Shown here piece after piece: positions 5,802 through 30,823 of a DNA stretch of 31,759 nucleotides (positions are counted from its first letter, which is position 1; each line of letters starts with the position of its first letter). The stretch lies in the NCBI GenBank assembly GCA_958009085.1, contig OY253674.1:1240001-1271759 (forward strand), given 5' to 3'. Origin of the DNA: Protoeuglena noctilucae (Eukaryota). The notes under the pieces were generated by a model. The model had not been told where the DNA came from and did no database searches. It worked only from the letters and a program-made list of their open reading frames with translations. The translations under genes and the position numbers were made by a program.

Positions 5802-8800
5802 ATGCTTGTGAAGATTATGGATGGCCTCTTCATCGGCGACAAGGACGCCGACGCCGCCGCGATGGATCGACGCGTGACGCACATCCTCCGGCGAGCGCGC
5901 GGCCGCATAACAGCGGCCTTCGATCTGCAATTCGCGAGTTTGCTATCTAAAGTAATCGCCTCGCGTCACGCGCCATCCCCTCCCGCTCCCTCGCCGCAGC
6001 GTGGGTCCCTTTGATGACGTGCCCCCTCCTTGCCCCCCCGGCGCCGCTGCGCCTTCGGTGCTCGTCGTCCCGGTCGATGACACCGACGACGCGGATCTCC
6101 TGGACCGTCTGCCGCCCGCGGTGGACTTCCTCGACGCCGCCATCGATGCTTTCCGGGACCGCAGGAGCGGTGGGGCCATGGTGCAGTGCGTGGCGGGGGT
6201 GTCGCGGTGAGGGATGGTGGATGGTGCAGTGTGTGGGTCGCAATGCATGACAGTGGTGTGCTTGTCAGCCATGCCTTTCTCAACCCCCTCACTCCCTCTC
6301 TCTCCCCCCCAGTAGCGTGTCGGTGGTGTGTGCGTGGGCCATGCGCCGCCACGGCCTCTCCCGCGACGACGCCCTCTCCCGCATCCGCACGCGGCACCCC
6401 CCCGCATGCCCCAACGACGGTTTCATGCACCAGCTGGCCATGTGGGGGTCCATGGGGTGTCGTGTGGATGCCAAGCACCCGGAATACCGAAGGTGCCAGT
6501 GGTGTCAGGGGACACAATCTCTGCTTGTGTTTGTGTGTGGGAACGAGTCACGGTGTCAAATTCACACCATGTCAGCACTTCACTCTGCCCCTCCCATATG
6601 CTACGCCTGCCTTGCTGCCACTCGCAACCACACCCGCGCCTCATCACATGCTCCCTCACCCATCTCCACTCCCCACACACCCCATCATCCCTCTCCTCCC
6701 CCCCAGGTTTTGCCTGGAGCAGCTGGGCGTGGATCACCGCGACGGTGCAGGCGTGGGCGAGGAGAGGCTGGCAGCGGACCCGGGGGCAGAGGGGGCGTCG
6801 TTGCATGGGAGTAACAATGACGATGTCAGTGGCAGTGGCAATGGGAGTAACAATAACAATGGGGGTAACAGTGGCAACACCAACCCCGGTGACCTGTACC
6901 GTTGCCGGTCGTGTCGACGGATGCTGTTTGGCGAGGGGAACGTCGTGCCGCCGGTGAGAGAGGGGGGGGGGGGGAGGTTACTTGATTAGCATGTAATTGT
7001 GCTTATCTCTGTCTACCTGTGCTCTTTCTCATATCTGTGTACCTGTGCACGTGTTCATATCCGTGTGCCCATGCATGCATATCCATCCCTCGCATATCTT
7101 TTGACAGTTATTCCCAATTCATCCGCAGTCGTCTGCCACCGGCTGGTCCCGATTTAAGCACGGGAGGGGACCCGCACGCCCACCACCGACCACAGCGAGT
7201 GCGGACGGGGGTGCGGGTGCCCATTCCCCATCGTCGCTGTTCCTGGAGCCGATGCGGTGGATGGAGGGGGTGCTGGGTGAGAGAGAGGGTTAGATGCGTG
7301 GCAAAAGGCGAAAGTAAGATGGATGCAATGCACTTCAGTAGTGGGTGACAGAGTATCGCCCACACCCACGCATCTGTCGCACCCTCCCTCCCCCCCTCAC
7401 AACATCGAACCCACCCACTTCCCCCACACCACCCACCCCCTCTCAGTCCCCCCTAACCCCAGGCTCCCCCCGTGGCAAGCTCTACTGCCCCTCGTGTCAC
7501 GCGCGCCTGGGATCCTTTGACTGGGCGGGGCTGCAGGACGAGAGGGGGCAGTGGGTGACGCCCGCGTTTCAAGTGCACAGGAGCAAAGTGGATGGGGGGG
7601 ACGGGGTGGGGGTGGGAGGGGTGGGAGTGGGGGTGGGCAGTGGGGTGGGGGGCGGTGTGGGAGGGAGTAAGGGGTTGGGCGGTGTAAGCGGTGTAACCAG
7701 CGGGGGTATGGGAGGGGTGGTGGCAGATGGGGTACAGGGCGGCACTGCACATGGTGTTTCCAGTGTGGGTCGTTTCGATTTCGTGATCTTCGACTGCGAC
7801 GGTGTGCTGGTCGACTCGGGTGAGGCAGCCGTGCCTATGTAGGCATGCATGCATGACATGGGGCTTGTGTGTGTAACAGTAGTGGTGGTGGTGGTGGTGA
7901 TACACCACCAAGTCTCTCCATCTGCCTAACTGTGTCCATCACCCCACCCAACGCCACCCCACCACATCACCATCCATTCCCTATTCTGTCTTCCCCTCAG
8001 AGCCCATCTCCTGCCAGTCCCTCGTGCTAGCCATCCACGCGGCCACGGGTGTCACCGTGCCTGGGTCATACCCGGATGACTTCGCGGCAGTGCAGGGGAT
8101 GGACGTCAAAGGGTGCGTGGGGCACTACAAAGCACAGATGGGGGTGGAGTGGGACGTGGAGGCGGTGGCGGGTGAGGGGTGTGGAGCGTGTATGTGGGTA
8201 GGGCATGGGTGCTGTGTCGTGGCTGGGCGGAGGTGGCAAGTATGGTGTGCCGCTTCACCTCGCTCTTGGGTTCTACTAAACTCAATCCCGCTGCCAATCC
8301 CTCATCCACCTCACCCATCTTCAATCCTCACTGATCCCCGCCTCCCCCCCAGCCGAGGTCTCCCGTCTCAAAGACGGCATCTACGCCCGCCTCGCCGACC
8401 AGCGCGGCATCGCGGCCATCCCAGGAGCAGCATCTCTGATTGAAGCATTGCGTGACAGGGGGTTGCCGTACGCACTGGGGTCGTCCGGGTCCCCTGCCAA
8501 GATCAAACGCAACCTGGCCACGAGCGGGCTCATATCTTTGTTTCACCCAAAACAGGCGAGGGGGGGGGGGTTGTGTGTGGGTGTGGGTGTGGGTGTGTGG
8601 GAGCAGCGCAGGTGTGTGGGTGTGTAAGGGAAGGACCCAAGCCTTTGCCTCACTCACTCTTACTCCCCCTCACTCCCTCCCCTTTCTCCAGGTCGTGAGT
8701 GCCTCGATGGTCCCCCGCGGCAAGCCCCATCCCGACATCTACCAAGAGGCCATGCGGCGCATGGGGTGCCAGGACCCACGAAGGGCGATGGTGATTGAGG

Positions 8801-9149
8801 ACGCCGTGCATGGGCTGGCGGCTGCGAGGGCGGCGGGGGCATTCGCGGTCGGGATTACCACGTCAGGTGAGGCTCTATGGCATTTGAGTGGTCATGGGGT
8901 GTCCATGGTTGTGGGGTGGTTGCGTGGGTGCTGGTAAGGCGATGACCGTGTGGGGTGGTGCTTAGAGTACTGTCGGGTCATGTATCGGTGTTGCTATGCG
9001 AGTGACATAAAAAGTGTTGCATTCTCGTCCCTCCACCCATCCACGCAGCCCCTCGCTCCGTGCTCGCCCCCCATGCCGATGCGGTCATTGACAGCCTGGC
9101 AGAGGTGATACAGCTGATGGGGTGGGGAGAGGGAGAGGGGGATGCGTGA
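5802..9149 (+). CDS. YVH1/DUSP12-like dual-specificity phosphatase fused to a C-terminal HAD-superfamily (CbbY/beta-PGM-like) hydrolase
   Basis: Exons 5802-5890, 6000-6206, 6313-6492, 6707-6953, 7129-7276, 7463-7819, 8001-8171, 8353-8555, 8692-8866, 9049-9149. DSP motifs: GLFIG, VQCVAGVSRS, PNDGFMHQL. YVH1 zinc-domain motifs: YRCRSCRRML, SLFLEPMRWM, GKLYCPSCHARLGSFDW, WVTPAFQVHRSKVD. HAD motifs: VIFDCDGVLVDSE, LGSSG, GKPHPDIY, VIEDAVHGLAAARAAG. Confidence 0.88.
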
Positions 9150-9410
9150 TGGCATGGATGGGAATGGTGGAGAGAGCGCAGGGTTGATGGGCAGACTAGC
9201 CGCGTGCACGTGTGGGTAGCTTGTCGCCTTCCCAACACAGCATGGATGGAGCAGCGTAGAGGCAACGCATGCACTGCACAGTGACTCAGGAGATCGCTGA
9301 ATGACGTGTTGACTGTCATCGCTTGACTGCTGAGGCTGTCGCTTTCAAAGCGTGGAAGAGCGGCGGGCGGCTAGCAGTCCCAGGGTGTGGCAGCCTGCGC
9401 CAGCGACGTC

Positions 9411-9561
9411 GCAATGACTGGCCTGGGACGGAGAGACGCGGCAATGACTGACCGGGGGTCAAGAGACGAGGCAGCCTGACCGGGTGCCAAGTGACAAGGC
9501 AGCCTGACCTGACCGGGTGTTAAGAGGCAAGTCAGTCACTGGCCGGGGGTCAACAGGGGCG
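9411..9561. repeat. Degenerate ~30-bp minisatellite, 5 units
   Basis: Units include gcaatgactggcctgggacggagagacgcg, gcaatgactgaccgggggtcaagagacgag, gcagcctgaccgggtgccaagtgacaag, gcagcctgacctgaccgggtgttaagaggcaag and tcagtcactggccgggggtcaacagggg. They share the core ctgRccggg...aaga. Confidence 0.7.
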
Positions 9562-10345: not shown

Positions 10346-13300
10346 TCACCCGAGGCTGCGGCTGGGTCTCGGCAGCACCAGCATCTCCCCCGACGCCACC
10401 GTCTCCATCGCCGGGCGTGACGCGGCTGCCGGGAGAGGCGCCGTCCTCCCCAGCAGCCCCCCGTGGCCATTCGCCCCCTCTCCCCCAATCGAGTCCCGCC
10501 TCCGCTCCCCCGCCCGGTCGTCCCCGCTGACGCTGCCCTCTGTCCACCGCGTGCGCCGCCTCTGCCCCTCCGCGTCGCTGGACTGGGCGCCGGGCGACCG
10601 GGGGGCGTGGGGGGCGGGGGCGGAGGTGCGGGACTCGCGGGTGGGGGCGGGGTCGAGGGAGGCGGTGGGGGGGGTGAGGGAGGAGAGCATAGCAGGTCCG
10701 GCGTGGGGGGAGCGGACGAGGGAGGCCGCCCAGGCGCGCAGGGCCGGGTGGGTGCCATCCACAATGTACGTGGCCGTGGGGCCCTTGCCCTTCACATCGA
10801 CTTCCTCGGGGCTGCGTGGGGGGGAGAGAGGGAGGGACGTGACGGGGATGGAATGGGTGGAGATGTGAGACAGAGAGATGCAGTGGCATGACGGGGACTG
10901 GGGTGGTGGGTGGCACTGTGCAGAGCAGAGGGGGTGGTGGTGCGAATGCACTTATCGATCAACGGCATGCAGCATCGATGCCTTTCTATATTCGCCAAGC
11001 GTGTCAGTCCAAATCTCGCCTAAACAGGTCCGCGATGGCCTCCTCCCTCAGCCGCGCGTGGAAGGCGGCCGTGACGCGGATGTGCATGGGGCGGCTGGTG
11101 GACTCCATGCGGGATGCCGTGTTGACCGTGTCGCTGCGGATATCGCAGAGGAGACAAGGTGTCGATGGGGTGACCCTTACCCTCACTGTACCACTGATGA
11201 GAGACGAAGGTAGGTCACATCACAGTGCCGGCCCTCACCCCGCACCCCACCTGCACCCGCTACCACCCCATGCCACTCCGTATCCACTTACCCGACGAGC
11301 GTCATGCCCCGCTTGGTGTGTCCCAGCAGCCCCGCGCACGCCGGCCCCACGTGCAGCCCCGCGCGGATGCGGATGCCCGATCGCTCCCCCGGCCCCTCCC
11401 CCGGCAGCGGAATCGTCTCTGCGATCTCCACCATCGCCACCGCGCACGCCAGGGCACGGTCGCAGAAGTCAGGCGCGTCGGCGTCGTTCAGCCCCGCCAC
11501 CGCCACGTACGCATCCCCCACCGTCTCATACTGCGATGCAGAGGGGAGCGGGGACGGATGCAGGGACGGGGCGGGTGCTGCTTAGACCTCAGCCACGCCG
11601 ATGCTTGTCAGCTCAGCACCCATCCCCCTGCACCACACTGCCACACTGGTGTTGCCGCGCAACCACCCCCATCCGCAACCATCCTTGGCTCGCCTTGAAG
11701 AGCTTGAGCGCGTGGACGGCCGCGTCGACGCGAGTGAAGTAGTTGTGCAGGAGCACCAGCACGCGGCGGGCGTCCCAGGTGCTGACCATGCTCGTGTACC
11801 CCACAATGTCGGTGAAGAGGAAACCCATGGCGGGGCGCTCCCTGAGGGGAGACGTGGATGAGAGAGACGTGGATGGGGGGGACTGAATGGCATGGATGGC
11901 ATGGGTAGTGTGGATGCACCATGCCTGTGGGTTTGTTTGCGTGTGGCATGGCGGAGGGCGCTCGTGCATGCATGCATGCGTCTGCATGTATGCCGTCGTG
12001 TGCTCACCGGAAGAAGGGAAGGTCGTCGGCGCACGAGATGAGCTTGAAGGGGTCGGGGTTCGTGATGGAGGGGCCTGTGATGGAGCGAGAGAGGCAGGCG
12101 GTGACGACCATTACGGGCGTGCGCTGAGCAGGCAGCTGTTCACATCAGCAGGTGGCACGGGGAGACGCGGGTATGCGGCATGCGCAACGGGGCTGGCCCA
12201 ACACCCACCCGTGGTGCTGAGGTTGATGGGCGAGGGGACCGTGGTGTTGACGTGGCCGGGCAGCCCCAGTCGCGTGGCCCAGTAGGACAGCCCCCTCCCG
12301 CGCCGCCCCTTGCTGTCCGTCGGCAACGGACTCGCCCCCTCGCGGCCCCCCTCCCCAGACCAGTGCCCCATCGACAGGGCCTCAGGGGCGCCCCGCTGCG
12401 ATGACAGCGGATCCGCCGCCACCTTGCGGCCACGGGGGGTCTGCGGGGGGGGGGCAATGTGGGATGGAGGGTGATAAGCAAGGGCGCTCGCACAAGCAGT
12501 GGCAGTGGCGCCTTGGTAGCCAGCAGCCCACGCCCCTCATCACGTGCCCCTCTCCCCTCACCTTGGCGGAGAGCACGAGTGCCTCGGCTGCGTCGGGGTC
12601 CCCCACGACGTCCCCCAGGACGCGGGACTGCACGCGGAGCTGGATGCGGTAGAGGATGCGGGTGAGAGCGATGGTGAGGAGGGCGGTGGCCGTAACGACG
12701 TGCGAGAGGGGGGAGGGGACCAGGCCGCCGCGCACGAGGGCCCCCAGGATGAGGGTGACCTGCAGGGACAGCGCCGCCGCGCCGGACAGCACGGGCAGCG
12801 CTGACGCCTCCCATCCGCCATCGCAGGACCACAGGGCGGCCAGGGCGCGGGAGGCACTCTGCGGGGTGGGGACGAGGGGCATGTTTGGTGTATGCGTGCG
12901 TGAAGGGCATGCCAGAGAAGGGGAAGAGAGGGGCGCAGATGAGGTGGGTGTGGTTGCGATGACCAAACGCACCTTGGAGTAGACGAGGTCCATCCATGCG
13001 GATGGCTCCCACACGATGCATGCCACGGCCTGGAAGAGGAAGCACACGACGGCTGCAGGCGGGACGGCGAGGAGCGACAGTGGCGTGGCGGCGACTCAGC
13101 ATGAGGGGGCGGGGGTTAGGCCGGTGTTGAGTGGGCAGAGATACGGGGGGCTGACGTCCTCACCCGTGACGACGCCGACTTCGACGGGGCTCGGGAACTT
13201 GCACGCTGCCCAGTACGTGGCGTCTTGCATGCCCGCCAGCAGAGCCTGGGTTCACACACACCGAGGAGGGTGGCGTGAGCGGCGGCAGTCAGTGCGACAA

Positions 13301-14338
13301 CCCCGCCACCCGCCCTGGCTTCCAAGGACACGGCTCACCTTGGCGCCCTGCCCCAGCGCAGTGACCGCCAGCGATGCGACGTTGAGCATTCGAAACATGC
13401 GCCTGGGACCACCGGGGGGGAGGGGGCAGCTATGTCGACACAGCCGCGCAATTGAAAAACAAATCCATGTGTGGAGAAGACATGGCTGCGGGAATGTGAC
13501 GAGGTCAGTCCCCCGCCCATGCGCGTGGCTCACTGGTACCCCGAGCACGGCACGGGGGCCGTCACGAGCACCGCCACCGTCACGCTGCTGCGGATGCCGG
13601 CCTGCGGTGGGGTGAGGGCATGTTCCGCTGAGTCACGCGTGCTCCACAGACAGCCGAGTCGCACAGAGCCCCCGTGCATTTGCAAGCGTGCGGTGGGGTG
13701 TCACGCGCTCACCCACGGCGTGGTGTCGAAGAGGGGTCTGTCGTCATCCCCGTCGCTGTGCGGGTGCCTCGGCAGTGCCCCGGCCACGACATAGACCTGG
13801 GCAGCCACGACGAGGGCGGCAAGGAGCACGGAGCGGTGGTGGACGATGCGGTTGCGGGTGAGGGGGGCGGCCAGCAGCACCTGGGAGGGAGGGCGGCAGG
13901 GGGGTTGGGCAAGCGGACACGAGCGCACGGGGTCAGGTGGGGGGGCGTAAGCGAGCGCGGCGGGCTCACCAGGGCCGTGGCTGCGATGGCCCATGTCAGG
14001 ATGGTGGCCGCGGACATGAGGGCGCACGTCTGGCTCTGCGAGGGCGCGGGGGCAGTGTGAGCACGAGATTTGTGCCAATGTCCTGTCACAGCGGGACTGC
14101 TTCACTGGCCTCCATGCGACATGCCTGGAAGTTTATCTGATAAGAGGGGCATGACGCCGAACACGCCAGCAGCAGCGGGGCCAGGGCGCTCCAGACGACG
14201 ACATAGATAGCGAACCGCTGCGGGCGGGGAGGGCGAGGCCATGGGAGCCTGCGTCGCGGAGTGCGGCTGGGGAGGGGCGAGGCAGGGTTGCGCCCCCCGC
14301 CGCTTGCGGGGAAGCCATGCGCTCAGCGCCGACGACAT
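10346..14338 (-). CDS. Membrane-anchored class III adenylyl/guanylyl cyclase (single catalytic domain); start codon uncertain
   Basis: Catalytic exons encode FLFTDIVGYTSM...LLHNYFTRVD...LFK|YETVGDAYVAVAG...IRIRAGLHVGP...GLLG...LVG|DTVNTASRMEST...|SPEEVDVKGKGPTATY. Upstream exons (~12560-14060) encode several hydrophobic, TM-like segments. Stop at 10346. The structure of the 5' exons is approximate. Confidence 0.85.
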
Positions 14339-15675
14339 TCGATGCACACGGATAGAAACAAAGAAGGCGCAGAGCGCATATGGAGGCCGCAGAGATGGCC
14401 GTCGGCCCCGCAGCGGGCGTCGGCGACGCTGCACGGCATGCTGCCGACGTGCGCCTGCTCCTGGCACGGGCATTGCCAGGATGCGGCGCCTTGCACTCAC
14501 CACGGGTGTTCCTGCTGGCGCCAGTGGCTGTCCAAGGCCGCCAATCACGCCCAGGCCCCTGCGATGGGAATCGCTGCGGCCATTACCTGAGAGCCTTGCA
14601 ACGCTGCGAGGTGTATACAGGGGTCGATGCCAGGACCACGATTTCCGAGCAACCCTCGCGCTGCATCGTCGCATTGCCGGGCAAAGACGCCCGCCGCAGA
14701 GGGCGGCAAGGGCCCAAACACTTGCACGCCCCCCCGCCCCTCGGCAGGGACGCGCAACCGGATGCGGCGCCATAGAAAGCCACCGTTTTCGTCCCGTCAT
14801 GCGGGAAGGGCCGCGGGACCCCCTGCCGGCCTGCATTCCTTGCCTGGAGTGGCGAAACGAGGGGCTCCCCCCGTGAAAACGGAGAGCCGTCGTCGCCATC
14901 ACTTGTTAATCGGAAAAGGATCGCGGCGCGCAGGCCATCCATGCGGACAAAAGGTAGTTCGCCGCGCTTGCGAGTCCTCTCGGCAGAGCTAAGAGTGACG
15001 CGTGACGCGGAGGACCCGGCGCAGTCAAACGACGCAAACAAGGGAAAAGGGCGCAATGGGACTGCGCGGAAAGCGCTTCCTTCCAACGGCAATGCAGCCG
15101 CCCTGTAAAAACCGAGCCTGCTTTGCCGCCTGCTCTACGGCGACGCGCCAATCATAAAGCGGGGGCTCCACCGCCGGGCAGAAAAGGGCCGGAACGCCGC
15201 CGGCGCGCTGAACTGGCGGATTTGCAGCCAGTTGCACGAGTTGCACGCCCCAGCCCTGTCGAGGGGAACTCTCTATCCGTTTAAGTGAGACAAAAAGAGA
15301 GAACCCATCCGCGTTCGCTGGGCCCTGCTAGCTTTGCCTCGCAGCGCGGGTCAACAACAGCCATCTTCGTCCCCACATCGCCGGCTCCCGCCGCCCAGGG
15401 CGGCGCGCCTCGTTCGCAACCCGCAATTCTCATAGACTCGCGTTGCTGGCGCGCCCAAGTTCGCGCTCGTGCCGGCCGGGCGCGCGGGAAAGGCAGGCGA
15501 GATGGCGGGAGCTTGGCAACGCGGTCGACCGTCGAATCAGCCCACCGTGTAGTTTACTGGATAGAAATCACGGATTTATTTCGTTGTGGACGGCGGCACC
15601 TCCTGGATACGCCGGCAGCGACGGCGCAGGGCCTCGGCAGCTGTGAGAAGGCCACAGGTCCGCCCCGGGCGCAGG

Positions 15676-17273
15676 ATGGCGGAGGTTTTGCCGCCGATGC
15701 GGAGGGCGTTGGATCCCACGCCCTTCTTAGGAAGCATCAGCACCTCACCGGAGCTCCGGCGGCACCAGACGACCCTCCGCATCGCTGGCGAGGAGGACTA
15801 CGTCTTTGGGAACCTCGCCTTCGAGGTTGGGCGGCGAATGGAGCTGCTGAACAAGCCGCTGAGGATCAGGGTCGCCCAGTGGCTCGAGAAGCTCGCGCGG
15901 GCGCGCACGAGGCGAGTGGGCAGCCATGGCAACCTGCCCGGCCCTCGTCCACCTTGCGCTCCCCATCCCGACCGCGCCGCGCCGTCCTCCCCGCAGCAAT
16001 CGGACGTGGCAGCGCCTCCGCAACGAGTACGCGAGGGTCCTGGTGGCGCAGCTCGAGCGAGGGCGCGTCAGCGAGCCTTTCCACTCCCGCCCGCCGGACG
16101 TGAGCGCTGCATGACGTGGGCGCCGGATGCCGATGCCGCGATGCGCCACCTCGCTCGTTGAGCTGCTCGATCCGCGCCGTGCCTCACGCCACCTCTCCTC
16201 TCGCCCTCCCCCAGGGTCCCCTCCCCGAGCTCCCCCACTGGATGCGGCTGGCGGCCACGGCGGGCGGCCACCCGGCCACGCTGAGCGAGTCGGCGCGGCA
16301 GACGGCCTCCAAGCGCGCCGCGGGAGGCCCCTTCGGCTCCCACATGTACACCAACGCCGGCAGCCGCCCGGCGTCGGCAGGCGCGGGCGTCCCGGGGGGT
16401 GGCACCGACCCCGGCAGCGGCCCGCTGTCGTCCCGCGCCGCGCGTCGGCTGTTCGAGGAGGCGGCGGTGTTGCGGGGCTCCTCGGATGGCCCCTCCGCCG
16501 GCGCCGGCTCCCTGGGCCCCCGTAGCGGCAGTTACCACGAGGGCCTGTCCGGGGGTGCGCAGCGCGTGGGCAGCCGCGTGGCGCTGTCCGGGTTCGACGC
16601 CTCGCGGCTGGGCCCGCGGTCCAAGGCGGAGCTCGAGTCGGAGCTGGGGGCCAGCCGCGAGCGCAACACGGAGCTCAACTGGAAGCTCCGGGTGGCAGAG
16701 GACCGGTGAGGGAGGGAGGCGGGTCGGACTCTCGTGGACCACGTGCCTCGCGGGATGCGTTGGCGGCGCCGGGACTGTTCGCTTATTGTAATCCTCTCTC
16801 ATCTCCCACACCGCTCCCTGTCTTCGCTCCCAGTCTGCGCGACGCGTCCCTGCACCTAAGCCGCACGGTGGGCGACGCGGCGGCGCGGCGCGTGGTAGGG
16901 GAGGTGGCGGCGGAGCGGGCGTCCGCCGATGGCCTGGAGCGTCTCCTGCGCAAGAACGAGGAGAAGAGGGACGCGCTGAGGTGAGCCGCGCGCAAGTGCA
17001 AGTGCCGGGGGAGGTCAGGTGCTGTCCCGCCGCGGTGGTCTGTCTTGTTCAACATGACCGCGAGTCCGCGGTCGTTCCCGCAGGTCCACGCCCGAGTCCC
17101 TGCGGCTGTCCAAGCTCTACGGCGAGCAGCCCCTCTCAGCCTGGGCTGTGTCCTTTGGGGGCGCGTCGGATGCCACAGCCGTGTATGACGACGACGGGTG
17201 GCTGCGAGCCATGCAGGAGTTCCGAAGGCAGACGGAGCTCCTGCGCCAGCAGATCGCCCTCATCAGCCCCTGA
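15676..17273 (+). CDS. DUF4485-domain (CEP112 N-terminal-like) coiled-coil protein
   Basis: The spliced product contains RIRVAQWLEKL...T|SNRTWQRLRNEYARVLVAQLERGRVSEPFHSRPPD|GPLPELP, which matches the DUF4485 pattern (W..KL...W..RN.YA..L...G....PF...PP.GPLP.L). A coiled-coil segment follows. Last exon 17084-17273. Confidence 0.75.
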
Positions 17274-17428
17274 CACTGCCCGCTGCCACTGCCCTGCTCC
17301 CGTGTCGCTCTTGCTGCACTGCACCCTACCAGCGCCTGCCACCCTGCCCTCCCGCTCCTAGCTTCCAACTCCTAGCTTCGTTTGAATCAATCGCTGACTA
17401 ACGCTGCCTCCCCATGCATGCCCGAGAC

Positions 17429-19608: not shown

Positions 19609-20081
19609 GCTCACACTTTCCCTGGGCCCTCCCAGGTTTCGCTTTGGCGCCTGAAATGGCATGGCGGCAAGCGCGGTCGCTCGCACAGGGGGTCCCAGGT
19701 GCGCGTGGTTCTGCTCGGGTTGTCACCGTGCATGCTGTGATTCGGGGCCGCTGCGGGATGACGATGTCAGACCCACAGACCTGTGCTGACGGGCGGGCAG
19801 GTGGCCCGCCCGCTGACTGAGAAAACGTCGTTTCATGCACCACTCCGACCGCTGGCGCCCCGCGGAGCGTGGCGTGGGGTGACGATTGCAGCTGCCGCGG
19901 TGCGCAACGCCCGTCCCTTGTTGCTCCTCCCTTGCAGGCGCATCGGACAGGCGGCGACTTCAGGCTCACTTTGCCGAGATCCAAGCCTCACACCCGTGTC
20001 TGTCGACACGCTCACTCTGGAAGCCCCTTGCTCGCTTCAACACTCCCGCACCGCTACTCGACCCAACCCCTCCCCGTTCCT

Positions 20082-22291
20082 TCACCGATTGTTGCCGAGT
20101 TCCCCGCAGTCGGGCGCCTCAATCTCCCCCCGGATGTCGGCGGGCGGCAGGGTGTCGACGTCGATGGTGCGGTCCAACTGAGAGAAGGTCTCGAAGAAGG
20201 CGCGGAGGTGCTCGCGGCTCGTGTGGATGTCATCTGTGAGGAGGAAGAGACGAGCAGAATGCGGATCATCACACGTGGTATCACGCCTGCCACTTGTGTC
20301 CATCGACACCATCGCCAAACACATGCCGCTCGCCCCCCATCGCGACGCCCTCTCAGCTCCTCGGTACACCCTCGCATCCCGGTGCCCCCCACCCCACCCC
20401 ACCCCCTCACCGGTGCCGCACATCTCCCGGATCGAGTGCATGGCCAGCTGCGCCACCCCCACGTCCACCGTGCGGATGCCCGTGGCCGCTGAGATGATGG
20501 GGCCGATCGTCGACCCGCACGCCGTGTCCTGCCGCACCACGAACTCCTGGCTGGGCAGGCCGCGGCGGGCGCCCACCTCGCGGAAGAGCGCGGCGGTGAC
20601 GGACGTGGTGGCGTAGCGCTGGTTGCAGTTGTGCTTGATCACCACGCCCCCGTGCATGGCCGGGCGGTGACCCGGCTCGTGGCGGTCGGCGTAGTTGGGG
20701 TGCACGGCGTGGGCCATGTCGGACGAGACGACGAACGACCGCTGCATGGCGCGCTCCACGGCGCCCTCCTGCCCCGCGCCCAGGGTGCCCGCCACGCGTC
20801 GGATCGTGTCGAGCATCACGGGGCCGCCCGCCCCCACCGCGGACTCGCTGCCCACCTCCTCGTGGTCGAACAGCGCCATGGCACGCACCGCCTCCTCCTC
20901 CTCAAGCCCAGACGCGGACAGCAGGGCGTCCAGGGCACTGCGGGCGGGGTGGGAGCGATGTTACGGATGAGGCGTCCTCCACTCAGAGTGATATGAAATG
21001 GTCCTTAACACCACTAGCGGTGGATCGGTGCCATCCACTTGAAGTGATAAGAAACGCCCCCCCTTCCCCTGCTATCATCATCATCGCTCACCAGAAGGAC
21101 GACGCGAGGTTGTCGAGGCGCCCCACAAAGAGGAACTCCCCCCGCGCCCCCCCGATGACGCCCGGCTGCACGTCGCAGAGGTTGAGGTCAAAGTCTGCGA
21201 TATCGTCGGCGGCGCAACCCAGCTCCTCGGCCAGGAGCTGCAGCAGGAGGGGGCACTGGGCGTCCCGCCACTTGCGGAGGGGGTCGCCTGGAAGCAACGA
21301 GCCATGGGGTTAAGTGAATGGGTCAGTGAATGGCAGAGCGAGGGTTGCAAGCTCCACCAAGTCATCTACCCGAACCCCACAGCGCACCGTTGGCCCCAGC
21401 CCCGCCCGCCCCAGCCGGGCTCTCCAGCCGCCCCTTGACCTCCGTGGCCAGGATGGGTGCCAGCTCCGTCTCGGGGTTGGGCTTGAACCCGGCCGTGTTG
21501 ATGTCGCGGTTCAGGTGGATGGCCAGCATCGGAATGCGCAGGATGGGCCGGTCGATCTTTACCAGCTCGTGGCTCAGCCGCGCTCCCCGCCGCACCAGCA
21601 CGCGACCCGCCAGGCCCAGGTCGCGGTCGAACCACGTGTGCCACAGGCCCCCGCCGTACGTCTGCACCGCCAGCTGCAGGTACCCCTCCCGGGACCGCGC
21701 CGTGCGGGGCTTCAGCTTCAGGCACGGGGAGTCCGTGTGGGCGCCCACCACCAGGAAGCCGCCCCCGGGCTCGTAGCGCCCTCCCACGGCGAAGGCCACC
21801 AGCGTACTCATGTTCCGCGTAAAGAAGTACTTGCCGTTGCGCCGGATCTCCCAAGCGTCCCGCTCGGACAACTGCTCGTAGCCCGCAGCGAGGAGGGCGC
21901 GGCGAGCCTCGTCCACCGCGTGGTAGGGCGTCCAGGCCTGCGGGAGGCGCGAGCAGATGAGGATTCGGTCATCGAAACGAGACGCGGGGGCAACGCGCCG
22001 CGCGATGGCTCCCAGAGCGCGACCGCGCACCTTGTTGATGTAGTCGAGCATGCGGTGCGCCGTGGTCTTGCCCGCCGCAGCGGACGCGTCCTTAGGCGCG
22101 GTCATTTCCAGTCGGGCCACGTCAGGGCTGTCGCCAGAGCCGCAACGGGCGCGGATTTGCGGGACAACCAGACGCGGGCGAAGGAAGGAGCAGGGGTGGC
22201 TGGCAGAGACTTCAGACACTCCGTGTCGAGACCTGCGACGCGGAAAATGCCGTTGGCGACGTCGACGGCACGCCCGCAACTCCATCGGCAT
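20082..22291 (-). CDS. DNPEP: Aspartyl aminopeptidase (peptidase M18, DNPEP/Ape4-like); start uncertain (22291/22285 with a targeting extension, or 22105)
   Basis: Motifs: WTPYHAV, YFFTRNMSTLVAF, GAHTDSPCLKLKP, YGGGLWHTWFDRDLGLAGRV, IPMLAIHL, GRLDNL, FDHEEVGS, SSDMAHAVHPNY, QRYAT, CGSTIGP, MHSIRE. About five exons, stop at 20082. Confidence 0.95.
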
Positions 22292-22691
22292 CAGGATCAG
22301 CGCAAGGCTGACGGGTGCGCCTGCAGCTCGCAAGGGGGGTCCAAGGCTTGCCTGGCTCCAGCCGCAGAGCTCAAGAGACGTCCCCTGGGAAGCACTGCAC
22401 GCATTTGACGTCTCAACCGGTGGGCAGAGCCTGCGCCTGCCCCACACAAACCCGTGGCAATCAATCCACGCCAGCCCGCGGGAATCCGAGGCGCTTTTTC
22501 GAGCATGGGTCACGGGGCGGAAGTTGTTCAGCCCGACGACCGATAGGCTGGCGCCTGTGTCAGTTGCCTCCCGCTGCCTCGGCACAGCACCGCATGTCAG
22601 GCGCAGACCTGGGAGCGAGGCCAAGCTGCCCCCACACCATCTCTGCCCTTCCTCCTCTGCTGCAGCCCGAGCGTTCAAATAATCGCGGCGC

Positions 22692-22991
22692 CTATTTGAG
22701 CAGGCTGAACAGCTTGGGCGCCACGCACTTGTCGATGCACTTCCAATAGTCGAAGTACTGGCCGACGCAGTTGGCCTCCCCCGTCTTGTCCCCCTTGATC
22801 CTCTCGGCACATGCCTGAACGGGTAGCCAAGAGTTGCATGGATCACGGCCCCCGCCAGGTACGGCTACCAAGCAGCGTGTGCAGCTTCGGGCGCATGGCG
22901 TGTGCCCACCTCGTATGCAGCCAGGAACTTGATGCACTTCGGCTTGCACTCCTCCTCGAGGTGAGGCTTCGGGTCTGCCACGTCGTCGCTC
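22692..22991 (-). CDS. QCR6: Cytochrome bc1 complex subunit 6 (hinge protein, QCR6/UQCRH); first micro-exon lies upstream and is unplaced
   Basis: SDDVADPKPHLEEECKPKCIKFLAAYE|ACAERIKGDKTGEANCVGQYFDYWKCIDKCVAPKLFSLLK*. The DPK..LEE.C, C.GQYFDYW.CID.C and APKLF..LK motifs match plant/algal QCR6. Confidence 0.93.
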   Translation of the reverse strand, partial: ERRRGRPEASPRGGVQAEVHQVPGCIRGGHTPCARSCTRCLVAVPGGGRDPCNSWLPVQACAERIKGDKTGEANCVGQYFDYWKCIDKCVAPKLFSLLK

Positions 22992-24108
22992 CTGCGCAAC
23001 GGGGGGGCTTGTGAAGGTCTCAGCAGTCGTCGGCAGAGCAGCAGAAAACCTCTGATGGGGCTGAGAAAGGCACCGACGAGACGAGCGCATGCAAATAGCG
23101 TCAAGGAAGAGCTAGCGATGCAGCTCGAGACGCACAGACGGCGACAGGGCTCACAAGGCTGGCAGACTCGTTAAAACGCCATGCATGCGGAGTGCGGAGA
23201 CGCCGATTCGCGCTGCAAACAAACGCGCTGCAAGTCCACGCGTTCCCCTTTCACAGGCCGACAGGTCTTGCTCTGCCGGCCCGGGGAAAGCTGGGAGCCA
23301 CGAGAGGCTAAGTGCGCCCCAGCTACAGGGCGACTGTGACCTCTCCTCAACGCCAAGCGGGACGACAAGCAAAGGTATGAACCACATCGTCGGGACGCAA
23401 AGCTTAGACGGCGCGGAAGCCGCCCGGAGCATAAAACAGGCGGACCTCCAGCCACGCGGGGCGTGCAGGCTGCCCCTCGCCGCCCTGCGGCGCCCTCGTC
23501 GGCGGGGAGCAAGGTCGGGCCTCAGAGGAACATCCAGCCACGCTTCTCCACTCACATGGTCCCCTCCCTCGCAGCCAGCCGCGCGCGACGTCACGCCTGG
23601 ACCGATCCCACGACGATCGGCAATCACACCTGCCCACGAGTGCGAAATTGCGCGCAGGGACGGCAAGCGGGAGGGAATCCTGCAGCCTGGCCGACACCAA
23701 CTTTCTTACATGCGGAGTCGGCTTCAGAAAAGCTCAGCTGCTCACCTCCCCGGCTCCGTCGTCATCGATCGCTGACCCTTGGCGATTCAAGGTCACTCGC
23801 GCGTGAAGCTTGTGGAGAAAGTTGTGGGTTTCCGAAACGTCGCGCGAAAGGCGACATCTCAGCAGGAACTGAGATCTTTGGACCACAAGGAGTCGCGTGG
23901 ACGGCGGTTGGGGGCTCGCGGCCTCCCACCGCATCAGGGCGTTGGTGTCCGTGCCCTCCAAACAGCGCGAACTCCGCGAGCGAGGCCCGCGGGACTATGC
24001 GGGGCGCCTTGCGTCGCTTTCTCTGACATGCCTTTTCTCCTGTAAGGAGGACGGTCCACACAGACGCCCGGCCTGCGCGGGCGCCCGGGACCAGGGTTTG
24101 CGTACCTG

Positions 24109-27100
24109 ATGCTCGGGGAATATGCCCTGCTGCCCGGTCTGGGAGGGATGCCGGGGTTCGGAGGCCTCCCTCCGATCGTCACTCCGCCCCCCTTCCACCT
24201 CCCACCGGCCGTCTCGAAGGGGTGCGTCCGCGCAACGGACATGCAGGCGCTCTGCCATGCCTGTTCTCGACCGGTGGTCTCCGGGGGCCCCGCGACGAGC
24301 CCCGATCGATAAGCGACGACCGGACATGCATGCGATGCTTTCCTCGCTCCCCCCGCCTCCGCAGCTCGCTCCCCGCCGCGGGCCAGCAGTCGTGGCGCAG
24401 CGCCCCGGCCAGTCCCCGGAGCCTCTCGCCGCTCCCGGGCCGCAAGCCGCACCGCGGGGATGCGAACGGCGCGGTGGGCCCGCAGATGGGCCCCGCGCCG
24501 CTGTCGCGGTCGGCGAGCGGCACGGGGCGGGCGTCGAGCATCAAGGTGGTGGTGCGCGTCCGGCCGCTGAGCGAGGGCGAGGCGGCGGCGGGGGACCGCG
24601 AGGTGGCCGTGGCAACGGGGTCTGGCGGCCTGCAGGTCACGGCGCCCCCCGTGGCCGCGGGTGCCTCCGCCAAGGCCCGGTCCTTCGACTTCCACGCCTG
24701 CCTGGGCCCCCACGTGGGGCAGGCGGACGTGTTCGGGGTGTGCGGGGTGCCGCAGCTCGTCAACGCAGCGCTGCGGGGGTACAACGGTGAGCGAGCAAGC
24801 ACCCCGCTGCTGCTGGGGAAGGAGTTGCGTGGCAGCCCACGCGTGCTAGGCATGCACACGAGCTTGGCCCATGAGCACCAAGGCCTCCCCCCGGGCTCCC
24901 GCAGTCTCGGTGCTTGCGTATGGCCAGACGGGTTCCGGCAAGACGTACACGATGACGGGGAGGGAGTCTGCCATCGCGTCGGCCGGGTTCTCCTCGGCCG
25001 CTTCGCCCCCCGACGGCGTCGTGCCCCGCGCGCTGCGTCACCTCTTCGCCGCGGTGGATGCGGCGCAGAAGGGGGCTCCCCGCGGCGAGGGGGTGCAACT
25101 GGGGCTGTCCCAGGTGGAGATCTACAACGAGGCCGTCTACGACCTCTACCGCTTCACCAACAAGCCACTGGCCGTCAAGGCGAGCCGCGGGGGGGTACAT
25201 GGCGTTCCTTGCGTGAGCAGGACATCATGAGCAGGAACCGAGCCATCATCAGCAGCCACGTGCCATCCCCACCGTGCCCCTTCTCACCCCATCACCCCAC
25301 CGCTCCTCTGCTACCCCAACCCCTTTGCCTCCCCCCCCCAGTGGGACGCCTCGTCTGGCTTTTACGTGGACAAGGCGCAGGTGCTCCCCGTGGCGTCGTG
25401 CGAGGAGGCGCTGCGTGCGCTAGCGGTGGGCATGCAGCACCGCCACAAGGGGGCGCACGAGCTCAACCGCGAGTCGTCCCGCTCCCACTCCATCGTCACC
25501 GTGCACGTGGCCTCCACCGCCGTCGACGCCGCCACCGGCCGCCCCGTCACGCGCCGCTCCAAGCTCCTCTTCGTGGACCTGGCGGGGTCGGAGCGGCTCA
25601 AGGCCACGCGCACCACGGACGAGGGGCTCAAGGAGACGGGCAGCATCAACCGCAGCCTGTTCACGCTCGGCAAGGTCATCGGCACTTTGGGGGACGCCAG
25701 GGGGGGGGCCGCGCCCCACGTGCCCTACCGCGACAGCCTGCTGACCAAGCTGCTCATGGACAGCATCGGGGGGTCGGCCCTCACGCTCATGGTCGCCTGC
25801 GTGTCCCCCGCGGAGTCTCAAGCCGAGCAGACGCTGAGCACCCTCGCCTACGCCCAGAAGGCCAAGAATATCCGCAACAAGCCCGTAGTGCAGGTCGACC
25901 ACGCCGACGCAGAGATACTGGCGCTGCAGGCGAGGGAGTGATGGGGAATAGGTGCAGCAGGGTGTTGCGGGGAGCTGTGGGAGCTTGTGTGGTGTCAGCT
26001 ACATCTGTCGGGTTGTGTTGCGAACGTGTGCCCGTCTCACAGCACCCCCTTGCCCTCGCCTCGCTGCACAGAGGGAGCTCGCGCTGCTGCGGGAGGAGAA
26101 CAGCTACCTGCGTCGCCACGTGTCGTCCACGCCGGGACCCCTTCCCGCCCCGCTGCCGCCCCCGCGGCTGGCACACACGGACAGCGCCACCCCCGCGCGC
26201 CCCGACAGCCGCAGCTCCGAGGGCGGCGTCCCCGCCGGCGAGATGGCACTGTTACAGTCGCTCAGCCAGACGCGGGCGCGCGACCGCGGGGCGTCCGGGG
26301 CAGTGGCGGAGGAGGCGCGGGGGGCAGTGGCACGCGTGCGGGGGAGGGGCGACGCTGAGCTGCTGCGGATGGCCAGGGAGGACCTGGTGGCGGAGCTGCG
26401 TCGCGCCACGGAGCTGGTGCTGCGTCTGGCGGGGGAGCTGGACGAGGGGGCGGCCGAGAGAGACCGACTGCGGTGCGTGGGGGGTGGGATGAGGGGAGAG
26501 CGAGCGATTGCTTGGCCGCAGCTGTCTGTGTCTGTTCCTGTCAGCACCCTGCACGCGAAGCGGCGAGGACATCTCTTGTGGACCCCACAACTGTCGCTGT
26601 GCCTGATCACACACCCACTCTCACACCCTTGTGCCTCTCCCCATCCCAGGGCGTCCCGTCAGCTCCTGGCCCTGGACCACCGCGGCCTGGCGCAGGAGAA
26701 CGAGCAGCTGAGGCACAAGGTGGGGCTGCTCGAGGCACTCGTGAGGAGGAGGGGGTCGGGGGGCAGCGGGGCGCCGATGGATGCCGACACAGCCACCACC
26801 ACCCCCGCTGCCGACCCCGCGCCCGGCCGACCACGCGCCCCGTCCATGGGACGCGCGGGCACCCTCGCAATCGAGGCGCGCCAACCGCTAGACGCCCCCT
26901 CTCCCCTCGCGTCGGCATCCGAGAGTGACATGCACGCGGGGGACGCGCATGCGGGGCCCGTGGGCGACTGGGATGCCGCGGGGGTTCGGTACCTGGACCG
27001 GGTGCGGCGGCAGCTGGGAGCAGAGGCGTCCGGGAGCGGGGGCAGCGGCGCGAGCAGCCCCGCGCGGCGGCTGGCGGGCGTGCACAGCGACGTGCCCGGG

Positions 27101-27415
27101 GCGAGGGAGCGCATGGAGATGGGCCCGGTGGAGGCGCGGGTGCGGATGCGGCACCGCAGCCACAAGGGCGTGGGGCAGAGCGGGGACCGGGAGGGGGAGG
27201 CGGAGGAGGGGGAGGGAGGGGCGCGGTCGGCGCATGGCGACGCGGCGGTGACGGGGGCTGCGGGGGCAGGGGCGGCGCCGGAGGTGGTGCGTGCAGAGAG
27301 CGAGAGGAGCGACCCCGGCGAGAGGGGCGCGTCGCGGGTGGGGGACGACGGCCGAGGGGCAAGGGGGGGGCGCATCACTGTGTCTGGGCGTGCGATGGAG
27401 TTGCTGGGGGGATAG
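24109..27415 (+). CDS. Kinesin motor protein, KIF12/kinesin-16-like (start 24109 or 24148)
   Basis: Exons ~24109-24221, 24365-24787, 24905-25179, 25342-25929, 26072-26472, 26650-27415. Motifs: IKVVVRVRPL, AYGQTGSGKTYTM, EIYNE, NRESSRSH, FVDLAGSER, INRSLFTLGKVI, HVPYRDSLLTKLL, TLMVACVSP. The K|WDASSGFYV segment and TLMVACVSP resemble KIF12; the subfamily call is less certain than the kinesin call. Confidence 0.92.
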
Positions 27416-27514
27416 GCGGGTGATACGTGCCGACTGTGAAGCTTGCTTGCTTACTAGTACTAGGCTAGGACAACCCTCCGATGGTCTCCCCATCGCGTGA
27501 TTCAACCGGCGCCG

Positions 27515-28925
27515 TCATCCTGCCGCATCACTCGTCTCCTTGGCGCACACCCTCTTGAGGAATTCGTAGGCGGAGACCATGGCCGTGCCCCACAGGGCGC
27601 TGGATGCCATGCGGGGGGCCACCCCGCGGAACATCCCACGCAAGCCGTCGCGGGCGAACAGGTCGCGCACCACGGCACGCACCGTCGGCTGGGCCTCGCC
27701 TCGCGCCGCACGCGTCACCTGCGGGAGCAGAGGCAAAGCAGGGTCAGCCTCGTTAGCAGGCACTGGCCCGTTGCGGCATGCCATGCGCCCACGCGGCTGT
27801 CGCCGCCATCCCCGCACCTGCAGCCGCGTCTTGACGACGTCCAGCGGCGCTGTCAGGAACCCACTCGTGGCCCCTGCCGCGACCCCCGACGCCACCTGCA
27901 CCGCCCCCACCCACGGCACTGACGCCCCCCCGCCCCCGTCCCCGCTGCTGCTGAGCCCCAGCGCGTGCCACAGGAGCTTCTGGTACGTGCTGTAAGCGCT
28001 CCACCAGATGGCACTCGAGGGCGCGTACGTCAGCTGCGTGGGGAGCACAGGCATGGAATGGTGCATGCACCGCCCATGCGCCCATGCCCCGACAACTCCA
28101 CACCCACGCTGCCAGTGGCTCACCAGGGACACGGGCAGTCCCCGGTAGAGTCCCCGTAGCCCCTCCTGCGCCAAGATGGCCCGGAATGCCTGCAGGCCCC
28201 CCGCGTAGCGCGGCTTGGGGCCCTCGTGGGGGGCGTGCACGTGCGACGCCCCGGCCTCGTAGCTCCTCTCCACGCGGTCCGCGATCATCAGGCGCTGAGA
28301 CACCACGTCGATGGGCACCGAGACGGCCTGCGTGGCCAGGCTGGCGCAGAACCCCGCCACGAAGCTGGCCGCCCCCGCAGAGGCGGCGTCGCTGAGGCCG
28401 CCCCAGGCGTGGAGGTGCGCGGAGGACACCGCGCGGACCTTCTCGAGGGACGTCAGGTACACGATCCTGGGAGCGGGGCGGGGCGTTCGTGTCGCGTGCA
28501 GCTAGACTTGAGCTGGTGTGCGAGCCCACCGTCTCCGATGGCTACCTGGCGGGGATGGTGCCCACGAGCACCGTCCCGAAGCCCTTGTAAAGCCCACGGA
28601 TGCCCTCGGCTTGAAACACGTCGCGCGCAATGCGAGCCGCGCCGCGCAGGCCCTGCACACTGCCCTGCCCCTGCGCATCCGAAGCGATCTGCCGCGTCTT
28701 GATCACCGTCAGCGGGAAGAGGCACACCGTCACGGCGCTGAAGAGGCCTGCGATGGGTTAGGGGGTAGCAGCGCCCGTGGCCGCAACGCGCTAACCACGA
28801 GCGGCGCGGCTGGATCGATGGACGCTGTACGCAAGGCTGCCAAAAACCACACCTGTACCGTACACAAAGAACTTGCGCTTGTCCAAGGCGTCCCAATCGA
28901 TGTCTCTCCGGCTGTCCTCATGCAT
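27515..28925 (-). CDS. Mitochondrial carrier, SLC25A44-like
   Basis: The N-terminus MHEDSRRDIDWDALDKRKFFVYG carries the I.W..LDK.KF motif of SLC25A44 homologues. Three carrier signatures are present: PLTVIKTRQ, PIDVVSQRL, PLDVVKTRLQ. Also EGIRGLYKG, EGLRGLYRG, DGLRGMFRG and TYAPSSAIWW. Five exons. Confidence 0.92.
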
Positions 28926-29369
28926 CCTGGCCCCCACGTTGGTCCTGCCGCGGGATTCGCGCCAGCCAAGCCCGGCGAATGGACGGCACTCGTCTCGCGC
29001 ACCAAGCCACGGAAACCACTTTCAGCAGCCGATGCCACGATCAAATATGACTAGTAAAGCGCTTGATGCGCAAATCACGGCTCAAATCCTAGCCAGGGAG
29101 CGGAGCGACTGGGTGCCACTGCTGGGTGCTGGATGGCCGCCCTTCGCGGCTCTTTGCAAGCGATGCGCACGCCTCTGTGCCGGCGAGGATCCCATACTCC
29201 ATTGTCAAACGTGTCAGATGCAGACTTCACGATTTGGGGCCGCATTGCCCCCTGAAAGGGCAAGGGTCTTCCCCACGTGACAGCGCGACCTAGCATGGCA
29301 GCAGCTAGTCATGGCGAGGACCCGAGAGAGTGCAGACGGCAAGCTCTGCTCTGCTCCCGTCCCTCGCGT

Positions 29370-30823
29370 TCATGCCTCCCGCAGAGAGGCCCCCAATGGC
29401 GTCACAGACACAGCTCCCATCCGAATGGCCCACACGTCCGTGCCCGCCTCGGCCGGCCTGCAAGGACGCACAGCAGTCACGGTCGATGCGGTTACTCGGT
29501 CAGCACTCGACGGGTCCGCCATCACACCTGCAGACATGCACCCTTGCCTCTCAAACACCCGCAGCCCCTCCGGGCTCCAGGCAAAGAGGCCGTCCTTGTC
29601 CTGGGCATAGGCGCGGCCGTACCCGCGACCACCCGCGATGCGCGTCCAAGCCAGCGGGACGGGCGCCGACAGGCCAGGCACGGGCAGCCACTCAAAGGCG
29701 GTGTCATCGGGGCTGTGGGAAGAGAGCACATCGGTATGCAGCAAGCGGGCTGGTCGACACGCAGACTGCCCGGCAAGCAAAAAGAGTCCGCATCGCTCTG
29801 CGCTGCATCGGCGTGAGGACCAGGGCTGAGCTGCCACCCCTCCCTATCGCCCTGTCCGCACCGAATGGGCTCGGCACCCAAGAGGGCCGGCACGTCGACA
29901 TCCACAGCCCCCACGCCCAGGGGCACATTGACGTTGCAGAGGTCGGCGCCCGCGGGCCACTGGGACCACAGCCGCTCGACGGCCGCGAGCGCCGCGGCAC
30001 TGGCGACGTGGACCTGGGCGTCTGTCCAGCGGTGAAGGCCCTGGGGGAGTAAGGGGGGCAAGCATGCCTTGAGGAGCATAGTTGTTAAACGATGTTCTGC
30101 TTGTTCGATCCATGCCTCGCCTGGAAGAAGGGGAAGGAGAGGGCGATGGCGGGGAGGCCCAGGAGGGCCGCCTCGGCAGCGGCGCCCACGGTCCCAGACG
30201 AGAGGACGAAAGCACGACCGGCGTTGTGGCCGATGTTGGGGCCGCTGACGACGAGGTCGAAGGGGTGCGGGTCCGCCAGCTGCACGGGGAGGGGTGGGGG
30301 TGGCTGTCCATGCGCTCAGTCAGGACGGCCAGGGCGCTGAGATGGGAGGGTCGTGGCAGCAAGCAAGTGCTCGCCTGATGGATGGCGATGTTGGCGGCGG
30401 CGGCGGGCGTGCCGGTGACCGTGAAGAAGCCCGGCTCTGCCTCGGCCAGCGCCAGGGGACCCCGGGGCAGCGCCTTGGCCACGAAGGATTGGTTGTCCGC
30501 GGGGACGCAGACCGTCACGTCCCAGAGCGGGGACTGGCGAGCAATGGCGAGAAAGGTGCGAAGGAAGGGGCTCTGCGGCGGGGAGGCAGGGGTGCTGTGT
30601 CCGTTGAAGGGGCGTGCGCCGGGGTGCGCGTGCCCCCCTTGAGCTCCGCTCTCACGTCCGGCCCGTCATCGTTCGTCAGGAGCATGCGCATGGAACGATC
30701 TCGTTTGGTGGACCCAGCCGTCGCGCGGGGCGCCCTCGCCGCGCGGGGCGGCTCGCACGACTTGGGAGGACATGACGGGGATCCAGCCAGGCGGCGGGCG
30801 CTGGCCGCCGCCTGCAGGATCAT
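29370..30823 (-). CDS. surE: SurE-family 5'/3'-nucleotidase (start 30691, or 30823 with an N-terminal extension)
   Basis: [14 protein letters not shown]..., [55 protein letters not shown]...VSVTPL. These are all canonical SurE motifs, spread over five exons. Confidence 0.92.

Follow-up and report, generated by a model that had tools for sequence, protein, structure and literature searches.

GC-AG introns are unusually frequent in a 31,759-bp stretch of contig OY253674.1 of Protoeuglena noctilucae (hereafter 'the window', meaning the whole stretch of DNA that was analysed), in which they represent roughly 20-35% of the introns, far above the usual 1%. These introns are removed from RNA, and the presence of C at position +2 of their donors is tightly tied to a complete donor flank. 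We estimate at about three in four the probability that they are ordinary U2-type introns, processed by the major spliceosome, and that their high frequency reflects GC pressure acting on a normal splicing machinery. The window has a G+C content of 67.3% (local range 63% to 73%), and a Pfam analysis of 300 of its 303 stop-to-stop open reading frames (ORFs) of at least 70 residues showed a compact array of eukaryotic genes split by introns. An earlier note on this DNA had proposed nine donors that all read G/GCGAG (the slash marks the exon-intron boundary). All nine read so on the strand proposed, with AG/GCGAG at eight positions and CG/GCGAG at position 5891, and all fall inside Pfam-identified genes, on the coding strand.

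Spliced RNA reveals five GC-AG introns

Three RNA runs (X1, X2 and X3) and one DNA run (X8) were aligned to positions 10900-30899, which comprise seven of the nine proposed sites; those at 5891 and 8556 lie outside this stretch. A contig of the DNA run is collinear with the entire aligned stretch and may be the DNA from which the window was taken. Among the best 15 of 40 joints, 12 are present in RNA contigs and absent from the DNA run, including four of the GC..AG and eight of the GT..AG type. For the GC..AG joints (11531-11693, 22233-22351, 25180-25341 and 25930-26071), this is the sole reading with standard boundaries within the junction ambiguity.

The RNA junctions bear out the use of GC donors at four of the seven proposed sites covered, 11019, 11693, 25180 and 25930. 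Two of them belong to an adenylate/guanylate cyclase gene on the minus strand. The first, 10812..11019 (tag/GCGAGA..CAG), was identified from a loose RNA end at 11020 in runs X1 and X2, which is an exact match to 10782-10811 and thus delineates the intron. The second, 11531..11693 (aag/GCGAGC..CAG), corresponds to a joint between 11530 and 11694 in X1 and X2 that is absent from X8. Two others, both of phase 0 and with joints in X1 and X2, are found in a kinesin gene on the plus strand, namely 25180..25341 (aag/GCGAGC..CAG) in the motor domain and 25930..26071 (cag/GCGAGG..CAG). The intronless kinesin ORFs of relatives run straight through both junctions, with the sequences ...LAVKWD... at 25180 and ...LALQRELALLREEN... 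at 25930. A fifth GC-AG intron, beyond those of the earlier note, is located in the 5' region of an M18 aspartyl aminopeptidase gene (22233..22351, minus strand, cag/GCAAGC..CAG; joint between 22231 and 22351 in X1 and X2). As the frame upstream of the M18 ATG at 22105 remains open, this intron would lie either in the 5' untranslated region or in an N-terminal extension.

The sites at 15912, 30120 and 30374 are not among the best 15 of the 40 joints, and the RNA therefore neither confirms nor refutes them. Twelve of the 13 loose ends had no placement in the window, with no match for 11 of them and only a 12-mer match for the other. They include the loose ends at 30021, 30313 and 30496, close to the sites of a SurE-like gene, which are uninformative on those junctions.

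In the DNA run, stretches of 26-33 nt at 11503-11535, 25573-25713, 26291-26316, 27189-27216 and 30393-30419 recur on other long contigs. These stretches, either small dispersed repeats or matches of low complexity, account for false 'joints' of 5-9 kb in that run.

Reading frames, profiles and homologues support five further GC donors

The other five proposed sites, at 5891, 8556, 15912, 30120 and 30374, are probably all GC donors, that at 8556 being the least secure. We built a donor matrix from 14 confirmed introns and scored every in-phase GT or GC for the same acceptor. The five proposed donors scored 6.2-7.7, and all in-phase alternatives 0.8 or less. Furthermore, Pfam positions are continuous to within 1-2 residues over the proposed junctions of the DUF4485, HAD_2 and SurE domains.

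In the gene for a DSPc phosphatase (plus strand), the sequence and the gene finder described below point to a phase-2 intron at 5891..5999 (ccg/GCGAGC..CAG), the donor of which is the only positive-scoring in-phase donor for its acceptor (6.3 vs -0.8 or less). The DSPc profile picks up at position 43 in the exon that follows. There is no in-phase GT alternative at 5891. According to the earlier note, GC donors were required at these sites, which is too strong for 8556, a site with six in-frame GT alternatives. The proposed phase-0 intron 8556..8691 (plus strand, cag/GCGAGG..CAG) belongs to a HAD hydrolase gene, in which a match to HAD_2 positions 75-123 stops 3 residues before the donor and a match to positions 125-177 begins at the first residue past the acceptor. 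Its donor scored 6.5, compared with 0.4 or less for the six GT alternatives (GTGGGT, GTGTGG or GTGTAA), whose use would lengthen the protein by 7-22 residues. Early in the intron (8561-8625), a run of 11 G precedes GTGGGT/GTGTGG repeats, and these repeats give rise to the alternatives.

In a gene for a DUF4485 protein (plus strand), the phase-2 intron 15912..15996 (gag/GCGAGT..CAG) would lie between an upstream exon matching profile positions 2-38 and a downstream one matching positions 43-74, and the 4 profile positions in between are bridged by 5 residues. Its donor scored 6.2, as opposed to -0.7 or less for the alternatives, which include a single GT (GTGGCT, 33 nt upstream).

The SurE-like gene, on the minus strand, harbours two of the proposed introns, both of phase 0. 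At 30041..30120 (cag/GCGAGG..CAG), the GC donor scored 6.5 and the only GT alternative (GTTTAA, yielding a 50-nt intron) -6.4, and the sequence FPFFQ/GLHRW across the junction is gap-free in the four alignments inspected. At 30280..30374 (cag/GCGAGC..CAG), the GC donor scored 7.7 compared with 0.8 or less for the alternatives, including two GT, with a resulting intron of 47 nt in one case. SurE positions 12-79 and 87-129 flank the latter junction, with 6 residues bridging 7 profile positions, and homologue alignments place it in a loop of variable length. An HMMER search with the second exon of this gene against 1.84 billion representatives yielded 896 relatives. We compared the spliced models with the first 50 of them and tabulated the 15 best-scoring. 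The GC-spliced model outscored both GT alternatives for 30374 in all 15 homologues and the GT alternative for 30120 in 14 of them, with one tie. A protein search with pieces of the SurE ORFs gave no match at E<=0.001, an outcome probably due to read-through into introns and to weak sharing of words, and an exact 28-nt pattern from a SurE exon had no match in metagenome contigs.

GC-AG introns account for a large share of the window's introns

Ten GT-AG introns with RNA or complementary DNA (cDNA) support served as comparators. RNA joints confirmed those at 11134..11291 (cgg/GTAAGT) and 11842..12007 (ccg/GTGAGC), both on the minus strand, as well as 26473..26649 (gcg/GTGCGT) on the plus strand. 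In the M18 gene, support also comes from P0002, a transcript-derived protein of 499 residues from a transcript-sized environmental contig, which is 100% identical to an M18 exon. Its exact mapping defines four GT-AG coding introns on the minus strand of the window, 20234..20410 (ccg/GTGAGG), 20938..21091 (ctg/GTGAGC), 21288..21387 (acg/GTGCGC) and 21938..22030 (aag/GTGCGC); RNA joints exist for the last three as well. Two more introns on the minus strand were confirmed by RNA, namely 22815..22909 (gag/GTGGGC) in the gene for the cytochrome bc1 hinge protein (UCR-hinge), found in three runs, and the 564-nt intron 22992..23555 (cat/GTGAGT), found in X2. For the kinesin gene, the intron 24787..24904 (plus strand, acg/GTGAGC) was deduced from the arithmetic of the pieces of one RNA contig and from the gene finder. 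GC-AG introns thus amount to 5 of the 15 introns with RNA or cDNA support. Among introns with RNA support, the minimum length is 93 nt.

We then used a self-trained Viterbi gene finder operating on both strands, with codon log-odds and with matrices for donors and acceptors derived from the 14 confirmed introns. With lax penalties it joined the whole window into one gene, and stricter settings were therefore used. The finder recovered the known structures and all nine proposed sites, for a total of 53 predicted introns, of which 15 had GC donors. The predicted GC donors of 20234-20290, 26500-26649 and 8415-8691 are contradicted by RNA or Pfam data and were corrected before counting. Two spurious predictions, 22961-23574 on the plus strand (opposite a confirmed intron of the minus strand) and 125-305 on the minus strand, were dropped. 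The curated list contains 54 introns in approximately 13 genes, with a median length of 120 nt and 14 GC donors. Ten of these donors are solid, five from RNA and five from homology, and four are predicted only. The latter include 29458..29547 in the SurE-like gene (minus strand, gag/GCAAGG) and a weak 598-nt candidate in the gene for a 3-dehydroquinate synthase II, at its 5' end (5159..5756, minus strand, cag/GCGAGC), which coincides with an AGGCGAG match at 5752-5758 on the minus strand. The other two are uncertain candidates in the 5' part of the kinesin gene (23663..24364, plus strand), 23663-24219 (acg/GCAAGC) and 24243-24364 (cat/GCAGGC). In this region, one piece of an RNA contig begins at 24364, and another contig is unspliced over 24281-24787.

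The AGGCGAG heptamer occurs 15 times in the window compared with 6.9 +/- 2.6 expected, a number reached in none of 100 shuffles, and 10 of the 15 occurrences are located at solid or candidate donors. The proportion given in the earlier note, nine of roughly 50 introns, is about right and perhaps slightly low in view of the 10 solid and 4 predicted GC donors among 54 introns. In this small sample from one window, GC-AG junctions do not make up the majority, neither among the supported introns (5 of 15) nor in the curated list (10-14 of 54).

A complete donor flank accompanies C at position +2

We defined a full flank as AG at positions -2/-1 together with GAG or AAG at positions +3 to +5. Among the introns with RNA or cDNA support, a full flank is present at all five GC donors and at none of the 10 GT donors (Fisher p=0.0003). 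The corresponding proportions in the curated list are 11 of 14 GC donors and 7 of 40 GT donors (Fisher p=7e-5), and 9 of the 10 solid GC donors have it. The GT donors are frequently GC-rich variants, such as CG/GTGCGC and AG/GTGGGC, and 36 of the 40 in the curated list have G at position +3. All ten solid GC introns begin with GC and end with AG, and precise removal from RNA was established for five of them. No ATCC-type U12 donor box was found among them, as their donors read GCGAG or GCAAG, the comparison being with the U12 consensus and with no model search. The pattern is characteristic of U2-type GC-AG introns, in which the mismatch at position +2 is compensated by full pairing at the other donor positions, and a compensatory strong donor consensus has reportedly been described for such introns.

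These observations suggest the following scenario. In a genome with 67% G+C, compositional pressure would erode the A and T positions of the 5' splice sites, and a donor would remain functional as long as its pairing with a normal U1, and subsequently with U6, is sufficient. Donors might then follow either of two routes, one in which T at position +2 is kept while the flank decays (CG/GTGCGC), and another in which T at position +2 is lost and a perfect flank is kept (AG/GC[GA]AG). We infer that recognition by U1 and U6 is unaltered, and that GC-biased mutation or gene conversion is the driver.

The earlier note had offered two interpretations, GC pressure with compensation by the exonic AG, or an altered spliceosome. 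The former fits the distribution of full flanks, and the latter is not needed. Altered recognition of 5' splice sites, through a U1 variant that pairs with C at position +2 or through changes in U6 or Prp8, would cause GC to be read as well as GT. It would be in line with a GC-AG frequency that far exceeds the range of 0.3-2% given for plants and animals in the available text of bioRxiv 10.1101/2024.10.30.620910, and the window offers no small nuclear RNA (snRNA) to inspect, its sole Rfam match being RNase MRP RNA. However, altered recognition predicts equally relaxed flanks at both types of donors, whereas, among the introns with RNA or cDNA support, full flanks characterize the GC donors and not the GT donors. 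We therefore favour GC pressure with normal U1 and U6. In addition, comparable frequencies in unrelated GC-rich algae are ascribed to composition by their authors, in the parts of those studies available to us. We thus regard altered recognition as unlikely.

A number of points weigh against GC pressure on a normal spliceosome as the explanation. RNA or cDNA support concerns 15 introns only and none at five of the nine proposed sites, and the RNA joints, as the best supported 15 of 40, do not constitute a random sample. The finder that produced the curated list had the 14 confirmed introns as its training set and made three known errors at GC donors, and the statistics of the whole list consequently lean towards the consensus. 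The data stem from one window, which could be an outlier. No U1 or U6 sequence was seen in the Rfam analysis of the window, which leaves some probability to an altered snRNA, and GC pressure enters the argument as a presumed driver in this organism.

Introns of the kinesin and M18 genes are absent from relatives

A search with the kinesin exon retrieved relatives among environmental genomic sequences with a G+C content of 69-70%, L001 and L002 (77% identity) and L003 and L004 (68% identity). In L001 and L003, kinesin is coded by a single uninterrupted ORF (970 residues in L001) over the positions of the introns at 24787, 25180, 25930 and 26473; none of these four introns is present in the L001/L002 or the L003/L004 ORFs. 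The gene next to that of kinesin in L001 carries its own GTGCGC..CAG intron, which indicates that this sequence is genomic DNA. Similarly, P0003, an M18 protein 87% identical to that of the window, is contiguous over all four M18 coding introns. The regions compared are 24787-26649 of the window with L001:879-3788 and L003:1589-3811, and 20234-22030 with P0003. Within the sequences sampled, all eight coding introns checked are thus confined to the lineage of the window, six of them being of the GT and two of the GC type. Over 606 columns, identities of 64.5, 57.1 and 55.8% bring the window nearer to L001 than L003 is to either of them, which mildly favours intron gain, if rates were similar.

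GC donors might therefore be viewed as a by-product of a recent, large-scale gain of introns starting with GCGAG. We consider this explanation improbable. As six of the eight introns absent from relatives are of the GT type, their absence is not linked to the donor type and does not explain the GC donors, and GCGAG is simply what the general GC-donor consensus looks like when GC-rich. An all-versus-all blastn comparison of 56 introns of the window revealed no sequence families, only matches of 21-53 nt that are mostly C/T-rich, as in short pyrimidine tracts, and one self-overlap. There was no sign of an origin by tandem duplication of flanks in the same introns either, with matches limited to 11-16 nt in 5 of the 56. 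Whole-gene intron loss in the relatives, by cDNA conversion, accounts equally well and equally simply for the pattern. A related idea, that the lineage massively gained introns after its split from the intron-poor relatives of 69-70% GC through a mechanism that does not generate repeat families, appears doubtful.

The last alternative, that some of the five sites lacking RNA joints are mis-modelled and that nearby GT donors are used there, such that the frequency is overstated, is very unlikely: in-frame GT alternatives exist at 8556, 30374, 30120 and 15912, a GTGGG-type donor is in use elsewhere in the window (22815-22909) and the finder chose wrong GC donors three times, but the alternatives score far below the proposed donors, two of them imply introns of 47-50 nt, well under the shortest RNA-supported one, Pfam continuity and homologue comparisons favour the GC junctions, and with the five sites set aside GC-AG introns still represent 5 of the 15 supported introns.

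Comparison with other GC-rich algae and with introners

High usage of GC-AG introns in GC-rich algae is already on record. In Emiliania (Gephyrocapsa) huxleyi, 56% of 241 curated junctions are GC-AG, nine of them verified by reverse transcription polymerase chain reaction, which was ascribed to a genome with 65% GC (available text of Feldmesser et al. 2014, PMC4028052). GC-AG introns amount to 14-17% in Aureococcus and approximately 14% in Pelagomonas, also ascribed to high GC, compared with 0.32% in the low-GC Aureoumbra (available text of bioRxiv 10.1101/2024.10.30.620910). The novelty implied by the earlier note is thus not supported by what these sources contain, and the organism of the window is one more case of the published pattern. 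Nothing further on this point emerged from a literature search on GC-AG introns in prasinophytes and haptophytes and in connection with introners, and the word 'splice' is absent from the main texts of two Prasinoderma papers.

The marine alga E. huxleyi resembles the organism of the window in its GC-rich genome, in a proportion of GC donors well over 1%, in its AG acceptors and in having RNA-verified junctions, as far as the available text tells. Unlike in the window, with its roughly 20-35%, GC donors form the majority there (56-60%), and the compensation by the donor flank seen here is not mentioned in the available part of Feldmesser et al. 2014. Moreover, the window does not come from a sampled close relative, its best named M18 matches being at most 70% identical. 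The E. huxleyi study concurs with the earlier note in that standard gene finders mis-model such genes, and our own finder misplaced three GC donors. The pelagophytes resemble the window by their 14-17% GC-AG introns, near the window-level estimate and attributed to high GC, and by their average intron lengths of 103-177 bp, close to our median of 120. They differ by their 0.2-0.9 introns per gene, as opposed to approximately 54 introns in approximately 13 genes here, and, in the available text of the preprint, by figures that come from predictions, whereas ours come partly from spliced RNA.

The GC-AG introns of animals and plants have the same dinucleotides and a near-perfect remaining consensus, AG/GC[AG]AG. 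However, their frequency is 10- to 30-fold lower than here, and position +3 is almost always G in the window, not A. Introner elements, or transposon-derived introns, have reportedly been described in Micromonas and Aureococcus. Such elements occur in one lineage and are lacking in its close relatives. The kinesin and M18 introns of the window may resemble them in this respect, although their distribution could stem from gain or from loss. Introners form multi-copy families of similar sequences, none of which was found among the 56 introns of the window.

Gene content and affiliation of the window

In addition to the cyclase, M18, UCR-hinge, kinesin, HAD hydrolase, DUF4485 and SurE-like genes, the Pfam analysis identified genes for DnaJ and mitochondrial carrier proteins, both on the minus strand. 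The gene for the 3-dehydroquinate synthase II (DHQS-II, PF01959; 3276-5150, minus strand) is split by introns in a eukaryotic context; this type of synthase is known mainly from archaea. The DSPc phosphatase gene (5802-7655, plus strand) apparently extends into exons for a Cys-rich C-terminal domain, and the gene finder divided the region into two models. With such a domain, the protein presumably resembles DUSP12/YVH1.

The RNase MRP RNA gene (Rfam RF00030; 19379-19607, plus strand) matches the full-length model with 57.3 bits, and an RNA contig of run X3 spans 18998-19686 at this locus. On the minus strand, an RNA contig ends at 22661, at a 22-nt T run on the plus strand, which is likely the poly(A) site of the hinge protein messenger RNA. 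This site is located approximately 225 nt upstream of the start of the M18 RNA contig (~22435), indicating a very short intergenic spacer.

Sampled words of positions 20500-30499 are 40-56% present in four marine metatranscriptome runs from one study and 100% present in four runs labelled with one organism, among them the DNA run X8. The nearest named M18 homologues, with the identities of at most 70% cited above, are from green plants and algae. Intron density and GC content argue against Pseudoscourfieldia, Chloropicon and the Mamiellophyceae as the source, since published prasinophyte genomes with less than 1 intron per gene are incompatible with the window, and Prasinoderma coloniale (69.8% GC) came into consideration for the window or its relatives. 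In an M18 tree from a quick search only, which is unfinished, the window, P0003 and P0005 fall outside the sampled chlorophyte, streptophyte and opisthokont sequences.

Implications

At least 7 of the approximately 13 genes of the window carry a GC donor, and gene finders restricted to GT donors would thus break or mis-frame about one in two genes in such a genome. High usage of GC-AG introns does not by itself indicate a new splicing mechanism. The window provides a further, independent case in which a GC-rich genome shifts position +2 of its donors from T to C only where the remaining consensus is intact, which makes it a natural read-out of the complementarity to U1 needed by a 5' splice site. 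With introns absent from close relatives, this group could also serve studies of intron turnover. If introns were indeed gained on a large scale, the share of AG/GCGAG donors would record how splice sites are minted or stabilized in young introns under GC pressure.

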